Source of the DNA: Candidatus Thorarchaeota archaeon
GTDB taxonomy: Archaea > Asgardarchaeota > Thorarchaeia > Thorarchaeales > Thorarchaeaceae
NCBI GenBank assembly: GCA_008080745.1
Contig: SHMX01000003.1
Coordinates: 30,001-62,000 of the forward strand
Reading direction: 5' to 3'
Length of the DNA: 32,000 nt
Positions 1,559-21,430 of this stretch are shown one piece after another. The position numbers and the translations under genes are program-made. Position 1 is the first letter of the stretch; every line of letters begins with the position of its first letter. The notes beneath the pieces are model-generated. The model was given only the letters and a program-made list of their open reading frames with translations, was not told the origin of the DNA and made no database searches.

Positions 1559-1801
1559 TTGAGAATGAATGCCTCCAAACTAATGGCTATATTAACTGGA
1601 ATACTCGGATGTGTAATTCTAGCGATTAGCGGCTGGCTAATACTCTTTGGAATTCAATGGGCAATATGGAATGCACCATTATCAGGTCATCCTCCAACTG
1701 ATATTGCATGGTTAGTCAATTCTGCAGTACCGCTAGGTTTTTTTCTCTTAGGACTAGGTTTTATGATGATACTATGGAGTAAACCATTAAGTGTGCAATA
1801 A
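1559..1801 (+). CDS. Small 2-TM membrane protein
   Basis: 80-aa ORF with two hydrophobic helices; fills the gap between flanking genes. Confidence 0.55.
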   Translation: MRMNASKLMAILTGILGCVILAISGWLILFGIQWAIWNAPLSGHPPTDIAWLVNSAVPLGFFLLGLGFMMILWSKPLSVQ

Positions 1802-1929
1802 TCTCTGCAATCGGTTCTTATTTCATAAAAGAATGATATGATAGTGAAGAACCCAGATAGATAAAAAAGCAGAGGTGAATACTTTAAGATATTATTACCT
1901 CTAACAAAATTCCATCGAGAGAGTCATCT

Positions 1930-3771
1930 ATGAGTATGAGAGAAAAATTTCAGAAAGTCAGAAATGATAAGCTGTTCGATGAAATAAAAGAACATATGAT
2001 AATGGGCCAATTTAAAGACGCACTTGAGAAAATTGATCTTCTCGATTTACAGTACCATTCAGATGCAGAAAAGGCAAAACTAAGAATTAAAGCATGGGAG
2101 ATAATGTGCATCACCCGCCAGGGGAAATATCAGGAAGGTCTGCAACTTGCAGATGAGTTCCTCCAATCTTACAATGATGAAGAGCTATACAAAGAACCTA
2201 TTCTGGATATTATAATTGCAAAATCATACTCATTTAGTGCACTTGGTAAGATTGATGAAGGTTTAGAAATGTGTAGAAAGGCAGAAGAGATACTCAAGAA
2301 TCTCGACCTGACTACACGAGAGAATCGAGCTCGTCTGGCAAGTGTCTTGACTATTCAGGGATTGAATGCACTTCACCAAGGAGATCTCGACCTAGCAATA
2401 GAGATCTATTCACAAAGCTATCCAATATTGGATGAGCTGGGAAATAAAAAGAGCGCTGCTGCAGCACTGCATAATATTGGTAGCACATATAGAGTCATGG
2501 GATACCTTGACCGAGCTTTAGAATATGTCGAGATGTCTAGAGCAATATCTGAGGAAATAGGATATACTCCAAATCTGGCAGGTGCATACACAACAACCGG
2601 AATCATACTCTATCAAAAAGGACGCCTTAAAGAAGCTGCAGATAGTCTTGAAAAGAGTCTTGATATGTTCGGAGAGATTGGGCATAAGGTATACCTTGCG
2701 AGAGGATTATACTACGCAGTAATAATCGAGGTAGCTCAGAAAAATCTGGAACGTGCAGAAGAGTATCTTTTCCAAATGGCATCGATAAATGACGAGCTTG
2801 AGAGTCTACTCATCAGTCAACATTATCGAGTAGCTAAAGCTATCTGGCTTAAGGCAAAAGCAGATCCCGTATCACTCCAACAAGCACAAGAATTATTCGA
2901 TTGTGTTGTCGATGAAAAAATTACCTTCTTCGAAGTGACATTTCAATCGCTCCTTAGCCTTAGTGATCTTCTAATAGACCAAATGAAAAGATCCGAAAGT
3001 GAGAAAGATATAGCAATCATTAAGGAATATACTGAGATAGCACTTGAGTTAGCAACAAGTCAAGGTTCACACTGGCTTGAGGCGGAAACATATTGTTTAC
3101 AGGCACAGATTGCATTGGTTGAACTTGAGTATGAAGAAGCCAAGAAGCTTCTTACAAAAGCCCAATTGATTGCAGATGAAAGAGGTCTATATCAGCTTGC
3201 TAGACGAATCTCTAATGAATTCGATGAGCTACTTAGGAAGGAAGAGAGATGGACAGAGATAAGCAAAAAGGGTGCGACATTTTCTGAGAGAGTAGAGATA
3301 GCTCAGATAAATGAACGAGTAGAACGGATGGCAAAGATTCAGGAAGCTGTTCCTCTACAAGAATCTAAAGATCAGCCAATTCAATTCATGCTTCTCTCAG
3401 CACACGAAGGATATTGTATTGTTTCTAAAGAGTTTGAAACTACATTCAAAGTAGACGAGTCTCTTGTGAGTGGCTTTCTAAGTGCTATTACCAGTTTTAG
3501 CGACGAGGTTTTTTCGTTGCCTCTTGACAGAATCAAAGTTGGTGAGTTTATACTTCTGTTTAGAGCAATAGTACCATTCCTATTCTGCTATGTCTTCAAA
3601 GGAGAATCATATTCAGCGTTAAAAAAGGTTGAACAAATTATCGAATATATACAACAAGATGAAGACCTATGGAGTTCACTGGAAGACACAATAGATACTG
3701 GAAAACAGAATACTCTTGTAAATCAACAGATACAAAGAATGGTTACAGAAGTTTTTCAAATGACTGGTTAG
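1930..3771 (+). CDS. Tetratricopeptide-repeat protein with C-terminal longin/roadblock-like domain (Asgard type)
   Basis: TPR helices (AAALHNIGSTYRVMGYLDRALEYVE, AGAYTTTGIILYQKGRLKEAADSLE). The C-terminal domain has LVSGFLSAITSFSDEVF followed by beta strands, the pattern of longin-like domains common in Asgard proteins. Confidence 0.8.
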   Translation: MSMREKFQKVRNDKLFDEIKEHMIMGQFKDALEKIDLLDLQYHSDAEKAKLRIKAWEIMCITRQGKYQEGLQLADEFLQSYNDEELYKEPILDIIIAKSYSFSALGKIDEGLEMCRKAEEILKNLDLTTRENRARLASVLTIQGLNALHQGDLDLAIEIYSQSYPILDELGNKKSAAAALHNIGSTYRVMGYLDRALEYVEMSRAISEEIGYTPNLAGAYTTTGIILYQKGRLKEAADSLEKSLDMFGEIGHKVYLARGLYYAVIIEVAQKNLERAEEYLFQMASINDELESLLISQHYRVAKAIWLKAKADPVSLQQAQELFDCVVDEKITFFEVTFQSLLSLSDLLIDQMKRSESEKDIAIIKEYTEIALELATSQGSHWLEAETYCLQAQIALVELEYEEAKKLLTKAQLIADERGLYQLARRISNEFDELLRKEERWTEISKKGATFSERVEIAQINERVERMAKIQEAVPLQESKDQPIQFMLLSAHEGYCIVSKEFETTFKVDESLVSGFLSAITSFSDEVFSLPLDRIKVGEFILLFRAIVPFLFCYVFKGESYSALKKVEQIIEYIQQDEDLWSSLEDTIDTGKQNTLVNQQIQRMVTEVFQMTG

Positions 3772-3857
3772 CTACCAATAAGAGAGGATGCATTAAGAAT
3801 AACTTCAATTAGTAACTTTAAAACGAAAATTTTACAACTGAGAAATAGGTTATTTTC

Positions 3858-4142
3858 ATGCAAAACAAATGTACAAGATGTGGTCAAGAGATTGATGCGC
3901 GAAAAGCTAAGTTTATGCAAAAATACCAATCAAGCGAAGGACTTGTTTGTTTAAAGTGTATAAATGAAAGTATTAGGGAAACAGAAATTGAATACCCAAT
4001 ATGCACAAAATGTGCAGAACCCATAGATCCATCCCAATTGCAAATCTTTGCTATTAGTAAGACCAAGGAAACCATTCCAAAGTTATGTGAAGGGTGCCAG
4101 AGCAAAGACCATCCTAAGTTACCACCAAAACGTTTACACTGA
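3858..4142 (+). CDS. Small double zinc-finger protein
   Basis: Four CxxC pairs (CTRC, CLKC, CTKC, CEGC) in 94 aa. Confidence 0.7.
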   Translation: MQNKCTRCGQEIDARKAKFMQKYQSSEGLVCLKCINESIRETEIEYPICTKCAEPIDPSQLQIFAISKTKETIPKLCEGCQSKDHPKLPPKRLH

Positions 4143-4188
4143 CTCGGAATATAAAATTTCAAAGATGTGACAATTTAGTAATCTTTGA

Positions 4189-6006
4189 TTATTCCGCTCT
4201 CGGGAGCCAAATTATGAACTCGGTACCTTTTGTATAATCTCCTTCAACACGATTGTTAACATCAATTGTACCACCATATTTCTGTACCATATGTTTGCAT
4301 AAGTGAAGATCTACACCACCATATCGACGGGAAATATCAAACAGAGCTTCTTTTCGTTGATCGGGTATGCCAATACCATTATCTGAGATGCTAATGCGAT
4401 AACCATCATTGAACTCAAAGACTTGAATCCATACACGTTTGGATTCAGAAACGTTATGCTTGATAGCATTCTCAATCAGCATTATGAAGAGTTGTTCCAA
4501 TAGTGCATCTCCTACAATATTAGCTCGAGTATAATGTCCTTCTATTTGGATAGAAACTTCACCATATTTTGATTGGATATGATTGATTGTATTAGCGAGG
4601 GCAATATCCAATTGTCGTATAGCAATAGGATTAGATGTCAAAGATTCTGTTAGAGTCATTTTCGTAAGGAGGTCTCTACATTCTGCGATAGCATTCTCAG
4701 ACTCAATGATCAAGTTATCATGCTGTTCTCCTGTAGTCTCACGGGTTATGAGGTTCATGCAGGCAATTATGACTTGAAACTTGTTCATTATATCGTGCCC
4801 AATCAAATCGAGATAGAGAACTGCACGGTCCTTTGATTCCTCTAGACTTCTAACCATCTTATTGAGACTAATTGATAATGTCTTTAGTTCGGTAGTACTA
4901 TATTCAGTAATCTCGTGGTCAAGAACACCTTGAGAGATAATTTGCGCATCCTCTGCAATCTTATGAATTGGTTTTGTTAGTCTAGATGTCCCGAAATATG
5001 TGATAAGTGAAGTAAAGAAGAAAGTGACAATTCCCAGAAGTATATGATATCCAATTAGACTTGTTAGTTGATTGCTGATGATGGTGGTAGTATAGACCAA
5101 TTCGATTACAAAATCAACCGATTCGGTGGGATAATCGCCATTTGTCAGACTCAGAAATATGTATTTTGTAAGAGTATTCGAGGTTATGTTGGAAACGGTT
5201 CGGTCTTGTTCTGTGTCACGGACATCAAATACAATTTCCAATAGAGAGTTCGAAGGATGAAAACTTGTATCTCCTAGAAGATCTCCAAAAATGGAAAAGA
5301 TACGTATTGATTCTAGAAATGAATTGCCAGAAACAAATTCATCTGCTGCATGTAGATAGCTTAATTCACTCGTGAGTTCAGAAAATTCATCTATCACTAA
5401 GCCCAATTCAAACACGTATTGTCGGTCGGGACTTGGCATATATGCGTAAATTCTAACATCCCCTGTCTGAATTTCAGGAGAAACCCGATCCAGAGTAAAA
5501 TTACCCTCAAGTCGAATTTGGGTAAGTTGTTCATAAAAGGAACATGAGAAATCACTAAAATTTAGTCCCAAATCTGGTGCATAAGTTGTGGAAATAATAA
5601 TACCGTCACAATCAATAATATACAAATCGTATGTCTTATTCAATATCTCATAGACCTTTGTGAGATTCATATCTTCAACATTACGACCAACGTCCTCGTA
5701 TTCAGAAATGAAATATTGAAAACCATCAAGCATATCTGATTCGTAATTTTTTCCGATGGTGTTTAATCCAATGTCTACCAAATTGAAAGTAGTTTCAATA
5801 TCTTGCTCTATTTGATTCTGCATGAGCTCATGACTACGCTCAAGATTGACCTTTGCAGTATTGTAATCAGAATAGGATATGAAACTAATAAGTGGAATAA
5901 TCAAAAGCAGAATAGCTAAAGTCAATTGAATTTTAAATGACCGTTTTTTAAGGAAGTCAATCACATTTGACAATTTATCTGCCTCAAATGAAATATTCTT
6001 GTCCAT
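4189..6006 (-). CDS. Membrane sensor histidine kinase (TM - extracellular sensor - TM - HAMP - HisKA - HATPase)
   Basis: Two TM helices flank a ~290-aa loop. HAMP (LTKPIHKIAEDAQIISQG), H-box (LIGHDIMN), N-box (LIENAIKHN), G1 (DNGIGI), G2-like YGGVDL. Confidence 0.9.
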   Translation of the reverse strand: MDKNISFEADKLSNVIDFLKKRSFKIQLTLAILLLIIPLISFISYSDYNTAKVNLERSHELMQNQIEQDIETTFNLVDIGLNTIGKNYESDMLDGFQYFISEYEDVGRNVEDMNLTKVYEILNKTYDLYIIDCDGIIISTTYAPDLGLNFSDFSCSFYEQLTQIRLEGNFTLDRVSPEIQTGDVRIYAYMPSPDRQYVFELGLVIDEFSELTSELSYLHAADEFVSGNSFLESIRIFSIFGDLLGDTSFHPSNSLLEIVFDVRDTEQDRTVSNITSNTLTKYIFLSLTNGDYPTESVDFVIELVYTTTIISNQLTSLIGYHILLGIVTFFFTSLITYFGTSRLTKPIHKIAEDAQIISQGVLDHEITEYSTTELKTLSISLNKMVRSLEESKDRAVLYLDLIGHDIMNKFQVIIACMNLITRETTGEQHDNLIIESENAIAECRDLLTKMTLTESLTSNPIAIRQLDIALANTINHIQSKYGEVSIQIEGHYTRANIVGDALLEQLFIMLIENAIKHNVSESKRVWIQVFEFNDGYRISISDNGIGIPDQRKEALFDISRRYGGVDLHLCKHMVQKYGGTIDVNNRVEGDYTKGTEFIIWLPRAE

Positions 6007-17345: not shown

Positions 17346-17435
17346 GCCTAAGTAAGCCCCTAATATCTTTCTAATCTAGAACTCGTAATAATAACCGGAT
17401 GCTTGAGAACCACGACTATATCGGCTTATTTGAAA

Positions 17436-17590
17436 CCGTTGCACAGAACTTGGACAAAGGTGGACAGGTGTCCTCATCTGCTGTCTGTTTCCTGCTTCAT
17501 CGAGGCTGCATCACTGGTCACAGAGGACTGGTGTTGTCTTACTTCCTCTTCACAGGCGTTTTGGGCCTCCGTGCAACTCACGGCGGCATA
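17436..17590 (-). ncRNA. Putative TnpB omegaRNA (reRNA) scaffold; the guide would be the 3' flank starting at 17435
   Basis: Overlaps the TnpB-tail relic and ends at the right end (...GCAACGG). Visible pairings: CCGTG/CACGG hairpin (17569-17583), CCTGT/GCAGG, GAGG/CCTC, GACAG/CTGTC. The 5' boundary is approximate and expression is unknown. Confidence 0.6.
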
Positions 17591-17738
17591 CTTATCTTAG
17601 ACATGATTCCTAATAACCTCCACTTCTGATGGTCTAGGTATACACTCCTGGTGGCCGAGCTGCCGGTGCTACCGTATACAGGTCAATATATCAAAGAGTC
17701 AATCGATATATGTCCAAGCTTGTCCACGTTTTGATCAG
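17439..17738. repeat. Sub-terminal inverted motif triplets of the IS607-derived element
   Basis: Plus strand TTGCACA (17439), TTGGACA (17450), GTGGACA (17460) versus TGTCCAA (17711), TGTCCAC (17721), TGATCAG (17732); mirror-image 11- and 10-bp spacing. Confidence 0.7.
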
Positions 17739-18400
17739 CTATTGCATACCCTACAATTATAATCTCTACTATCGAACCTATTATAATGATAATCGAAATA
17801 TTATCAAATGATAGGCCAGGTGGTACAGTTGTATTGGTCGATGTAGTCCCATCAAGGACCGTGTCCATAACTTGGTCCGACACTGTACTACCAGATTGGT
17901 CGGATACCTCTATGGTAAAATTCCAAATGCCGCTTGAGAAATCGTATAAGAGAAGAGTAACAGCAGTCTGATTGGAATCAGCTACCCGCTATATTTCATC
18001 GTAAAAGAATAGGACATCATTTTCATAAATCGCGCAGCTAGTTGGAGTATTCTCAGTGATAATCCAAGTGATATAAACATCATTAACACCAGTTGTGAAT
18101 TTAATATCGAACGGATTGGATATCTCAAGAGGTTTTTTGTCAAGTGGATACTCTTCTCTATTACCCCATCGGTCATGAGCTGGTTTACCATCAGGGATCC
18201 AGTTTCTAGAAATAGGTGAACTGAAGAAATCAGAAGGTCATGCAGAAAAGCATCTCTACATAAAAAGTAAACGATTTGCCCTCCTTATAATTAGTGTCTG
18301 ACAGTAATGGAAATATCAATAATTTTCTGCAATATTATGTCAAAGGAGATTGCAAAAAAGAGAATCTCCTGACATTTTATAGGCTTATACTAGCATTCTT

Positions 18401-21400
18401 CTATCCATAATAGTATCCAGAACTACCAGTATTACCTCTAGCTCTGCAGATTTGTGCTATCACTATTATAATCACAACAAATGAGCCAATAGTAATAATG
18501 ATAGATATTGTATCAAAAGGGTTCCCTGGATTGGTAGTAGTTGTTGTTGTGTCGTTAGTAGTAGTTGAGGTCGTGTCAGCGATAACATAAACCATTACAG
18601 TATCAGATATTGCATTTCCTCCTTCATCTACAACAACAATGGTGTAGTTATACACCCCTATGTCCAGACCATTCAGAGAAATTGCAATTCCTATTTGATC
18701 TTGGTTATCTGGCTCTCCAAATTCACTTGATACTAGTACTGTGTCGTCCAGATAGACGACATAAGATGCGGGATTTGCTTCCGTTACGGTCCATGTGATA
18801 GATTCACCCAAGGTCCCAACTATAAATTCTATATCGGAAGGTTGGGATATTTCAGGGTTGATGGTATCCACAATGGTAACAATAGTACTAGAATTACCTG
18901 TATTTCCGCTAGTATCACGAAAGATCAGAGTATAATTATAGACCCCCAATGATAAATCATCCATTGGTAGCGTAATATCGTTTCCTGACCAAGATATCAA
19001 CTCTGAAATTGTACCATTGATATATATCGAATAACTATCAGGATACAAATCCGATGCTTGCCAGGTTAATTCATTACCAGAAGATCCCAACTCAATACTC
19101 ATCGAACTAATGCTTGTAACCTCAGGTCCAGTGGTGTCGAGAACATGAACCTCAATGCTATGACTTGTGAACCTTGAGAAGGAATCATACACAACTATCT
19201 GGTACTCATACGAACCCAGTTGAAGACCGTCCACAGAGAATACTAATTCAGAACCATCCCAAGATCCACTTGTTTCCAAGTTATCATTAATGAATAGTTC
19301 ATAATTACTTGGATTATCTTCAAGAAAAGTCCAAGAAATCACATTTCCGATTGTACCTGCTTCTATAGTATCGTTTTCAAATGATACAAGTACGGGAGGA
19401 TTCATGTCAAAATTGGTAGATTCCAATTCGCCCCATTCATTATGTAGCGGTTCGCCATTAGGGTTCCAGTTTCTTATGTAGAGATGGTCTATATACCATA
19501 TCTCACCTGAGATCGAACCTTCGGTCAGACAAGGTTGTAGATCGATATCGGGAACCAGAGTGGATGTACTATGTACCTGACTATTATCTTGATACCATGT
19601 TGCAGTATCGTTCTTACGAAAGAGGGTATACGAGTGTTGATCAGTGATGGATGATGGAAAATAGGCGTATTCACCATCGAAAGATCCAGAAACTCCGGTT
19701 TCGAAATAGAAGTAGTTTGCAGAATTAGAACCATAGGAATCGATCTTTGATACGTTTTCGGGGTAGCCAGTTCTCAATTCTACAAGATGAGTGTTTTGAG
19801 TGGACAGACCGTTGGCATAACCGCGAACTGTATATGCTGTATTATAGGAGATATTTACTTTACCATCTATACTTCCTCGTGTTCCATCTGTGGATATCAA
19901 TTCTAGGTAGCCATTTGAAGTACTGATGTCCCCACTGGTCATATTCCATTTGTTCAGGTCAAGGTCCGCATTGAAATCGTCAAAGAACAGGAAGGTGGCT
20001 TCGCCATCACTGATACTCTCAGCTGTGGGATTCCCATAGTAGAGATAGATGCTCTGGTCAACATCCAGCGTATCATTCATCTCCACCCAGACCGTAGCGT
20101 AATCACCTGAAGTGGATTCCTCAATCCAGTAATCAAGAAGCGTTATTCCATCATCATCTGTGAATCGGATATCAGCAAAGTCACTCTTGCAGAGTTCGTC
20201 AAGATAGACAGTTGACCCAGAATCCGTACCCGATCCATACTGTAGGTCGAATGCAATCTGATAGTTGGTTCCAGAGCCAACCGCTCCACTGATGTTGTGG
20301 GCCTTTCTGTACTGCCAACTGGTCAACCATGGGCTCTCCACTTCACCACTAGAGCTCACAGCAGGTTCATTATAGATATACTTTCGAACGTAGAAGTCGT
20401 CCAGCATGAACTCGTCACCCAGTCCATTTTTCCCCCAGCCATAGACCCGGAAGCAGCTGAACCCACTTATTGGGTCCTCTCGTCGGTTCTCTCCTGGATA
20501 GGTGGTCCCGTCAAGGGTGAGATTGGTCTTTCCAGCTGAACTGGCCTTGTACTCGAGATCATACCAGGTATCTGGAAGGGCACTGATTCCATCCTGAAAG
20601 TCATGCAATACCCCAGCAGTGTCACGATATGCAAAGTCGTACTGTATTTCCGTAAAAGCGGACACTGAGAAGGCAGGGTCCCAGGTATGTCTGTCTACGA
20701 TACTACTGATGAACTGATAGGCCCGGATCTCCCAGTAGAACTTGAAATGTACCGCAATGTTGGTATGTTCTTCAAAGTAGGTCCCGATAACCTGGGAACC
20801 CGTTCCAGTGGGATCTTCTTGAAGATGACCAACCATACCAGAACGACCACCAGGAGCTGCTGCAAGCTCCCAGGTGTCACCAGCCTCTGTTTCGTTTACC
20901 TCCCACTTGGACAGGTCGGCCTCAAAGTCGTCAAAGGCGATGAAGGTGGCTGTACCATTGCTGATAGACTCAGCAGCTGTGTTGCCATAGTAGAGATAGA
21001 TGGTCTGGTCAACATCAAGGTTATCAGCTATCTCTACCCAGACTATTGCGTTGTTTCCAATAGTCATCTCCTCCATCCAGTAGTTCAAGAGGGTGACTCC
21101 ATCATCGTCTGTAAAGCGGATGTCGCTAAAATCACTATTGCATTGACTATCGAGATAGATATCCCAGCAGATATCAGATCCGCTTCCAAAATGGATCGTG
21201 AATCGAACTTGATAATTATTACCTGCTCCCATACTACCTTTAATGGTTACAGATTTACGACATTGCCAATCATATAACCAATTAGATTCTGCAGAGAGAG
21301 ATGAATCTTTCTGCATATATCTCGATACGGAATCAAAGTCTTCAGAAATTTCAATCTGCGGCGTATAGAAAGCACTTAAGACAAAAAGCACAATCACTAT

Positions 21401-21430
21401 CACTATGGGTATTATTTTCTTTGCCCTCAT
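18401..21430 (-). CDS. Membrane-anchored surface protein: signal/TM - two DUF2341-like (plus LamG-like) modules - three Ig-like repeats - Thr-rich linker - TM anchor
   Basis: N-terminal hydrophobic leader; repeated W..RK...I.G..G.G.NYQ...DF.DIRFTDDDG.TLL.YW.E...A.VWVE...L....IYLYYGN..A; three D..[GN]P....ITW...[ND]P..Y Ig-like units; TTTTTT then a TM helix. Confidence 0.9.
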   Translation of the reverse strand: MRAKKIIPIVIVIVLFVLSAFYTPQIEISEDFDSVSRYMQKDSSLSAESNWLYDWQCRKSVTIKGSMGAGNNYQVRFTIHFGSGSDICWDIYLDSQCNSDFSDIRFTDDDGVTLLNYWMEEMTIGNNAIVWVEIADNLDVDQTIYLYYGNTAAESISNGTATFIAFDDFEADLSKWEVNETEAGDTWELAAAPGGRSGMVGHLQEDPTGTGSQVIGTYFEEHTNIAVHFKFYWEIRAYQFISSIVDRHTWDPAFSVSAFTEIQYDFAYRDTAGVLHDFQDGISALPDTWYDLEYKASSAGKTNLTLDGTTYPGENRREDPISGFSCFRVYGWGKNGLGDEFMLDDFYVRKYIYNEPAVSSSGEVESPWLTSWQYRKAHNISGAVGSGTNYQIAFDLQYGSGTDSGSTVYLDELCKSDFADIRFTDDDGITLLDYWIEESTSGDYATVWVEMNDTLDVDQSIYLYYGNPTAESISDGEATFLFFDDFNADLDLNKWNMTSGDISTSNGYLELISTDGTRGSIDGKVNISYNTAYTVRGYANGLSTQNTHLVELRTGYPENVSKIDSYGSNSANYFYFETGVSGSFDGEYAYFPSSITDQHSYTLFRKNDTATWYQDNSQVHSTSTLVPDIDLQPCLTEGSISGEIWYIDHLYIRNWNPNGEPLHNEWGELESTNFDMNPPVLVSFENDTIEAGTIGNVISWTFLEDNPSNYELFINDNLETSGSWDGSELVFSVDGLQLGSYEYQIVVYDSFSRFTSHSIEVHVLDTTGPEVTSISSMSIELGSSGNELTWQASDLYPDSYSIYINGTISELISWSGNDITLPMDDLSLGVYNYTLIFRDTSGNTGNSSTIVTIVDTINPEISQPSDIEFIVGTLGESITWTVTEANPASYVVYLDDTVLVSSEFGEPDNQDQIGIAISLNGLDIGVYNYTIVVVDEGGNAISDTVMVYVIADTTSTTTNDTTTTTTNPGNPFDTISIIITIGSFVVIIIVIAQICRARGNTGSSGYYYG
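19991..21050. repeat. Intragenic duplication of the DUF2341-like module (offset 951 bp = 317 codons)
   Basis: 19991-20099 aligns ungapped with 20942-21050, including ccatagtagagatagatg[c/g]tctggtcaacatc (31 of 32 nt identical). Confidence 0.85.

Follow-up and report, generated by a model that had tools for sequence, protein, structure and literature searches.

A gene-less IS607-derived miniature element carrying a conserved TnpB omegaRNA scaffold in a Thor-type Asgard archaeon

We describe a 313-bp repeat in the genome of a Thor-type Asgard archaeon that is likely to be a non-autonomous IS607 element with a TnpB guide-RNA gene as its right half, the RNA of which, if transcribed, would be loaded by a TnpB encoded on another contig (C2) of the same genome. 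The element probably borrows this protein, the genome's single matching TnpB. The reading is based on the exact borders of 12 near-full copies, the similarity of both ends to IS607-type sequences and a scaffold whose stems covary across 34 homologous right ends. The window, by which we mean the whole 32,000-nt stretch of DNA that was analyzed, corresponds to C3:30001-62000 of an assembly of 3.16 Mb in 19 contigs (G000). Five short contigs of this assembly (C14, C15, C17, C18 and C19) have 62–65% G+C compared with 39–43% in the rest of the genome and are likely bin contaminants. Features of the element and its surroundings are collected in Table 1.

Table 1. Positions of the miniature element, its parts and the adjoining host features, in window coordinates
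Feature	Position	Strand	Details and basis
IS607-derived miniature element (MITE), 313 bp	17436..17748	-	start TATGCAAT, end GTGCAACGG; 12 copies with divergent flanks
TnpB omegaRNA (reRNA) scaffold, 153 nt	17436..17588	-	tnpB 3' end plus right end; ends ...CAACGG
RAGATH-18-like core (CCUGU...GAGG...CCUC GAUGAA GCAGG AA)	17489..17556	-	Rfam RF03064
tnpB remnant, last 40 codons plus stop (...AAVSCTEAQNAC...KQETDSR*)	17474..17596	-	translation
tnpA (serine recombinase, MerR-type HTH) first-codon remnant	17617..17681	-	CTG for lost start; in-frame stop
TATA-like box B, TTTGATATAT	17686..17695	-	11/12 copies; putative function
TATA-like box A, ACATATATC	17704..17712	-	shared by the MITE copies and the IS607 left end on C1; promoter role inferred
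Direct subterminal repeats GTGGACA / TTGGACA	17711..17727	-	read from sequence; presumed TnpA_S binding subsites
TAM / target site AGGG	17749..17752	-	5' flanks of 12 copies and the full element read DGGG before TATGCAA
Would-be 20-nt guide UUUCAAAUAAGCCGAUAUAG	17416..17435	-	host flank; codes FQISRYS in the interrupted paralog tail
Interrupted host ORF, probable decayed partial duplicate of a DUF2341 surface protein	17376..18237	-	alignment after in silico MITE removal; Pfam

Results

A repeat family with exact borders

Searching the window's own genome with the element recovered 12 near-full copies with pairwise identities of 81–100% (median 92%); with differences of 0–19% among the copies, the burst in which the family spread was probably not recent. 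When the 12 copies were aligned together with 40 nt of flank, similarity began at TATGCAA and ended at GTGCAACGG in every copy, the flanks were unrelated, and 17748/17749 and 17436/17435 are the exact points of divergence. Shared ends of multiple copies in unrelated surroundings are as expected of a MITE. The element is made up of a left end, the opening codons of a tnpA for a serine recombinase, and the final 153 nt of a tnpB including the right end. The preliminary description had presented the locus as an orphan guide locus; it is rather one of about 16 right-end (scaffold) copies of a mobile family in this genome.

Contigs from two marine-sediment metagenome runs, both on record as probable DNA (the kind is a guess), enter the element from both flanks and stop inside it, and their summed depth within the element is 30–47 times that of the flanks. 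The insertion therefore does not stem from misassembly, and the sediment community contains many copies of the repeat. No RNA run is recorded as containing the stretch, which speaks neither for nor against its transcription. No empty-site allele was seen among the contigs of these runs, none of which bridges the repeat and which as contigs cannot show rare variants.

Parts of the element also occur in other arrangements. A derivative of about 143–147 bp at G000:C5:43644-43786 (locus L014) lacks the first stem of the scaffold (stem 1, below); only 22 nt of the left end precede the scaffold here, the two being joined at an AAAACG microhomology that they share, between an AGAGGG flank and a ...CAACGG end. 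The same left end (TATGCAACAGCTG...) is found twice on contig C4, at G000:C4:186182 (L021) and G000:C4:200863 (L019), preceded by TTAGGG and CAAAGG and joined to different internal sequence that is similar between the two, and the pair possibly represents another non-autonomous family using the same end. At the end of contig C8 (G000:C8:78117-78223), a left-end copy (ATGGGG followed by TATGCAAC...) matches the MITE for about 36 nt before continuing as different sequence to the contig end, and may be part of a longer, unassembled relative.

Origin from an IS607-type transposon

The right end of the window copy (17588–17436, minus strand, 153 nt) matches, at 90% identity, the 3' end plus right end of a tnpB element at G000:C2:235585-236977, the right ends of the MITE copies are 88–90% identical to it, and residues 372–411 of the C2 TnpB match the window remnant at 72.5% identity (tblastn). 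It had been proposed that a deletion removed most of tnpB and kept the last ~150 nt, which is borne out by this 153-nt match to the only intact cognate tnpB element. At the opposite end, MITE positions 17–121 share 73% identity over 105 nt with an IS607-like left end on contig C1, including the MerR-HTH/resolvase start of tnpA. The remnant of that gene reads YTVAPAARPPGVYT*TIRSG in the MITE versus FTVSQAARRLGVCTKTIRRW in the C1 tnpA, and no other part of the MITE varies as much. In other genomes, a serine-recombinase tnpA lies directly upstream in 33 of 80 homologous tnpB loci.

The left-end match, the tnpB right-end match and the tnpA_S neighbors of the homologs thus support, at the level of sequence, the earlier proposal of an internal-deletion derivative of an IS607-type tnpA_S–tnpB transposon, with both genes removed and with ends that come from a serine-recombinase tnpA plus tnpB element. 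The deletion joint (17589/17588) falls directly 5' of the first conserved RNA stem.

Two other assignments were considered and rejected. A reading as an IS200/IS605 (Y1) element was weighed because ISDra2 is the nearest solved TnpB; the tnpA_S remnant, the GG junctions and the tnpA_S neighbors of homologous loci speak against it. For a reading as a group I intron-bearing element (IStron), Rfam found no intron. Separately, locus L057 (G000:C1:299000-304500) contains, at about 1702–4290, an IS607-like element lying between fragments of a host ORF, with a tnpA_S broken by a TAG. Its 712-aa protein, unusually large for a TnpB, was missed by tblastn with the cognate TnpB and has a C-terminal Cas12f1-like TNB domain as its sole Pfam match.

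Signals in the left end

The preliminary description had noted a TATA-like sequence in the left end, and this sequence (TTTGATATAT, 17695–17686, minus strand; box B) is indeed present and kept in 11 of the 12 copies. Its counterpart in the tnpB-only C2 element, TGATATATT, stands at equal distance from the left end. A second TATA-like sequence, box A, precedes by 23–31 nt the CTG (17681–17679) that stands in place of the tnpA start codon, and in the C1 IS607 left end the ATG follows box A by 26 nt; for this putative promoter element, the spacing is closer to the usual archaeal TATA-to-start distance than for box B. The GTGGACA/TTGGACA repeats are conserved both among the copies and at the left end of the C1 IS607 element, recur as inverted and direct copies in the right end (~17452–17474), and are presumably TnpA_S binding subsites.

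A TnpB omegaRNA scaffold with covarying stems

The retained 153 nt overlap the 3' end of tnpB, stop at the right-end border and abut host flank in the position of the guide, which is the arrangement of an omegaRNA. They comprise stem 1 (GCC-CCGUG/CACGG-GGC), a RAGATH-18-like core, a 3' long-range helix (ACAGA/UCUGU) and an inner hairpin. We aligned the window scaffold with 33 homologous right ends (34 sequences in total; alignment A1) from its own genome, Thor- and Hermod-type archaea, Chloroflexia, Actinomycetota, Omnitrophota and one unclassified bacterium. RNAalifold on this alignment recovers stem 1, a CCUG/CAGG helix and the 3' long-range helix, with nine covarying pairs. We also took a structure of 31 pairs from the window copy and scored it over the 34 sequences: standard pairs fill 88.9% of pair cells, compared with 34–52% when partners are slid by 1–3 columns, both-sided changes occur in 20 of the 31 pairs, and the observed values were reached by 0 of 500 shuffles. 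The long-range helix switches en bloc between ACAGA/UCUGU and CCGAA/UUCGG, and the terminal ACGG is invariant in all 34 aligned homologs. Folding energy was no better than that of shuffles for either the scaffold (z = -0.38) or the whole element (z = -1.14), so support for the structure comes from covariation and not from energy. The earlier suggestion of a retained omegaRNA scaffold, for which covariance analysis of homologous copies had been named as a check, therefore holds: the conserved scaffold is kept in full and its stems do covary.

Of four pairings put forward previously, CCGUG/CACGG, CCUGU/GCAGG and GAGG/CCUC belong to covarying helices across the 34 homologs, but GACAG/CUGUC is weaker: it is paired in 69% of cells, its outer pair occurs in no genome but the window's own, and two helices with better support, ACAGA/UCUGU and GGACA/UGUCC, compete with it. 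At A1 columns 143–146/162–165 (window ~17484–17481/17467–17464) we observed an ACA-N / N'-UGU contact with one covarying pair (UA in 15 sequences, CG in 5, GC in 3). Since this one GACAG/CUGUC pair covaries, the contact could be a tertiary contact, a pseudoknot or an alternative scaffold fold.

At gathering thresholds, Rfam returned no match on the whole window. With lax settings, RAGATH-18 (RF03064) matches over the full model length at 25.3 bits (E = 0.021), below its gathering score of 44.9, and the core thus resembles RAGATH-18 without being a member by Rfam's rule. In terms of length, ISDra2 TnpB binds an reRNA of ~150 nt including a 16-nt guide, so a whole scaffold can be accommodated in 153 nt.

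Target sites and guides

Across the 12 MITE copies and the tnpB element, DGGG precedes every copy (AGGG in eight, GGGG in four and TGGG in one). All copies read DGG-G/TATGC at the left border and ...AAC-GG/ at the right border, as expected of a GG crossover at a G-rich target, and the last GG of AGGG is presumably the crossover dinucleotide. Both the guide (17435–17416) and the TAM-side flank (...TAGGG, 17753–17749) are as the preliminary description gave them, and the assignment fits published IS607 rules, namely a TGGG target/TAM and a scaffold ending in ...UCGG (10.1101/2023.11.20.567912).

The 13 guides belonging to the 12 MITE copies and the tnpB element are mutually unrelated flanks, and each has one exact genomic match, which is its own flank beside ACGG and so without a TAM. 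A genome-wide search for GGG-flanked second sites with at most two mismatches in 16 nt found none for the 13 guides, bar one probable chance match, and the window guide has no match within three mismatches in the neighboring gene for a 1009-aa surface protein. The guide had been described as directed against a surface-protein gene. It does equal the sequence of the paralog tail, but it is merely the flank of the insertion and has no other TAM-flanked target in the genome. Because each guide copies its insertion flank and has a single match, it is 'against' that gene only trivially: the surface-protein match follows from where the element landed and does not mark a regulatory target, a reading that we rejected as no credible second site exists for any of the 13 guides.

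The interrupted host ORF

The MITE interrupts a host ORF 20 codons short of its stop; the ORF also contains an in-frame TAG (17989–17991) and lies next to an upstream gene for a DUF2341 surface protein of 1009 aa (18404–21430). Once the MITE is removed in silico, the ORF can be aligned over 149 aa, at 40% identity, with the 1009-aa protein, where the match covers the C-terminal repeat, the membrane anchor and the tail. This alignment crosses the joint uninterrupted (...IIIVG/FQISRYSRGSQASGYYY versus ...IIIVIAQICRARGNTGSSGYYY), and as the paralog runs straight across, the insertion point is independently confirmed. Being only a fragment and carrying the TAG, the ORF is probably a decayed partial tandem duplicate, or pseudogene. 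It has no DNA match in 25 related genomes, and the empty site was therefore compared only with the neighboring paralog.

Constraint among copies within the genome

Among the 11 full-length copies, stem 1 (0.05 minor alleles per column) and the 3' core vary least, and the tnpA remnant (~0.9–1.05) and a hairpin that is also variable across the family vary most. We defined family-conserved scaffold columns as those conserved in ≥90% of 30 foreign homologs; among the MITE copies, 7 of 52 such columns are variable versus 37 of the 101 others (Fisher p = 0.0026), a test that is indicative only, because related copies are not independent. In the 16 right ends of the genome, 25 of 592 pair cells are broken, a single truncated copy accounting for eight, and a few of the changes are compensatory. 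The window copy departs from the family-conserved base at four positions, three of which are in pairs that are still standard; two of these three pair with each other in the 3' long-range helix. This constraint on scaffold columns and pairs argues that the RNA mattered, at least while the family spread. Part of the right-end conservation need not reflect RNA function, since transposase recognition also needs the right end.

Partners in trans

As the preliminary description had suggested, we searched the genome for IS607 tnpB genes and found a compatible, intact one. The cognate tnpB is present as a single intact copy (C2:235704-236936) within a 1.4-kb tnpB-only element and encodes 411 aa with OrfB_IS605, TNB zinc-ribbon and HTH domains and the RuvC motifs VGVDLG, VIEDL and DRDHNAA; its nearest solved relative is ISDra2 TnpB (E = 3e-75). 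Thus, the MITE itself contains only gene remnants, and the compatible effector is encoded at a distant site of the genome, as for a stand-alone omegaRNA. For the transposase, no intact IS607 gene was found in the 98%-complete assembly. The two tnpA_S genes detected are both truncated, at 142 and 121 aa, and cover positions 2–77 and 2–51 of the 145-position resolvase profile. The assembly as it stands thus encodes nothing able to excise the element, empty sites may no longer arise, and what we see may be a fossil. Absence of the transposase is not proven, however, because contigs end at repeats and an intact copy could have been left unassembled.

Discussion

If the element is transcribed, a transcript starting in the left end (from box A or box B), or reading through from the host ORF, would cross the scaffold into the flank. 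The C2 TnpB would bind this transcript and trim it to an omegaRNA, with the last 16–20 nt (UUUCAAAUAAGCCGAU...) serving as the guide. The loaded complex would spare the occupied site, because ACGG is no TAM, and would cut the joint AGGG+UUUCAAAU..., which is present only after excision or the entry of an empty allele. Repair from a filled copy would then restore the element, amounting to retention or homing.

That this machinery is simply dead is unlikely in our judgment, though it is the alternative to which we give most weight. The element would then be an inert MITE whose right end was kept only as a DNA site of a past serine recombinase, with the scaffold as a passenger, and this would agree with the truncation of both tnpA_S genes in the assembly, the divergence of copies by up to 19%, the decay of the host ORF itself and the existence of a derivative without stem 1 at C5:43644-43786. 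Against this stand substitutions that avoid positions conserved in the omegaRNA family (p = 0.0026), a stem 1 (135–153 nt from the end) with almost no variation next to a variable tnpA remnant, and stem changes in the genome's own copies that are few and mostly pair-preserving. The genome also maintains an intact TnpB that looks catalytically complete, and with assembly breaks at repeats an intact transposase may be unassembled. We are doubtful of a proposition in the opposite direction, that selection still keeps the MITE scaffolds despite the loss of any working transposase from the genome and that the single TnpB with its ~16 guides acts as a transposase-independent drive on element-free alleles. 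If true, the drive would convert alleles arriving by Asgard DNA exchange, and the system would be one of population-level homing and not an aid to repair after excision.

Exaptation as a regulator appears highly improbable. Here the guide RNA would direct a TnpB-like protein to the surface-protein locus, comparable to TldR-type TnpBs acting on flagellin genes, and would control expression or recombination between surface-protein paralogs. The guide is coding sequence of the paralog tail, the element is co-oriented with that gene, and exapted RNA-guided relatives of TnpB have precedent in the literature. But the guide matches only its own flank, beside the non-TAM ACGG, and leaves the 1009-aa paralog unmatched within three mismatches; all 13 guides are unrelated flanks; the ORF into which the element inserted is itself a decayed fragment containing an in-frame TAG; and the TnpB keeps its nuclease motifs and is encoded in a mobile element, not beside the target. 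We retain, as the likely reading, a non-autonomous IS607 element with a TnpB guide-RNA gene.

Elements of this type have been published before, as stand-alone omegaRNAs and protein-less omegaRNA elements, and the present family adds a well-delimited Asgard IS607 case to the protein-less elements that carry TnpB guide RNAs. The set offers exact borders, a predicted DGGG TAM, 13 natural guides and a single cognate nuclease, which makes it a convenient natural system for asking whether a lone TnpB acts in trans with guides from many loci. A compact TnpB/omegaRNA pair with a G-rich TAM for editing could also come from it. For annotation, the element accounts for a GC-rich island and a truncated surface-protein ORF, both of which are prone to being misread by gene callers.

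Comparison with known systems

Stand-alone omegaRNAs are described (Altae-Tran et al. 2021 via PMC10691335) as mobilized without effector or transposase and working in trans, and PATE-like protein-less elements in Geobacillus stearothermophilus encode omegaRNAs (PMC10055086). The window element resembles both in combining a mobilized scaffold with transposon ends but no nuclease or transposase gene in cis, in having a compatible nuclease elsewhere in the genome, and in taking its guide from the insertion flank. Unlike PATE, which is a bacterial element of IS200/IS605 type with a Y1 transposase and hairpin ends, it is of IS607 type, with a serine-recombinase remnant, a GG core and a G-rich TAM, and resides in a Thor-type Asgard archaeon. 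Within the IS607 group, a close parallel is CboIStron of Clostridium botulinum, whose transposase inserts at TGGG with a strict GG and whose TnpB needs a TGGG TAM; its omegaRNA scaffold ends in ...UCGG, and the occupied TCGG is spared by discrimination at position -3 (10.1101/2023.11.20.567912). The two share an NGGG target/TAM, a GG crossover, a scaffold ending in ...CGG and a guide directly after the right end. They differ in that the window element is archaeal, has no genes and has no group I intron (no Rfam match), and in the base before GGG, for which its family prefers A or G and CboIStron T.

IS607 TnpBs have been reported with AGGAG or GAGGG TAMs (PMC11061315). The RAGATH-18-derived reRNA of ISFba1 shares with the window scaffold the core CCUGU-GAGG...CCUC-GAUGAA-GCAGG-AA and a G-rich TAM (PMC11061315; RF03064); it measures 207 nt including a 20-nt guide, compared with 153 nt for the window scaffold, which scores 25.3 bits against the RF03064 threshold of 44.9. 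ISDra2 TnpB of Deinococcus radiodurans uses an reRNA of ~150 nt including a 16-nt guide (PMC8612924; PDB 8EXA, 8H1J), which likewise spans the tnpB 3' end and right end and takes its ~16-nt guide from the flank; unlike the window element, ISDra2 belongs to IS200/IS605, with a Y1 transposase and a TTGAT TAM.
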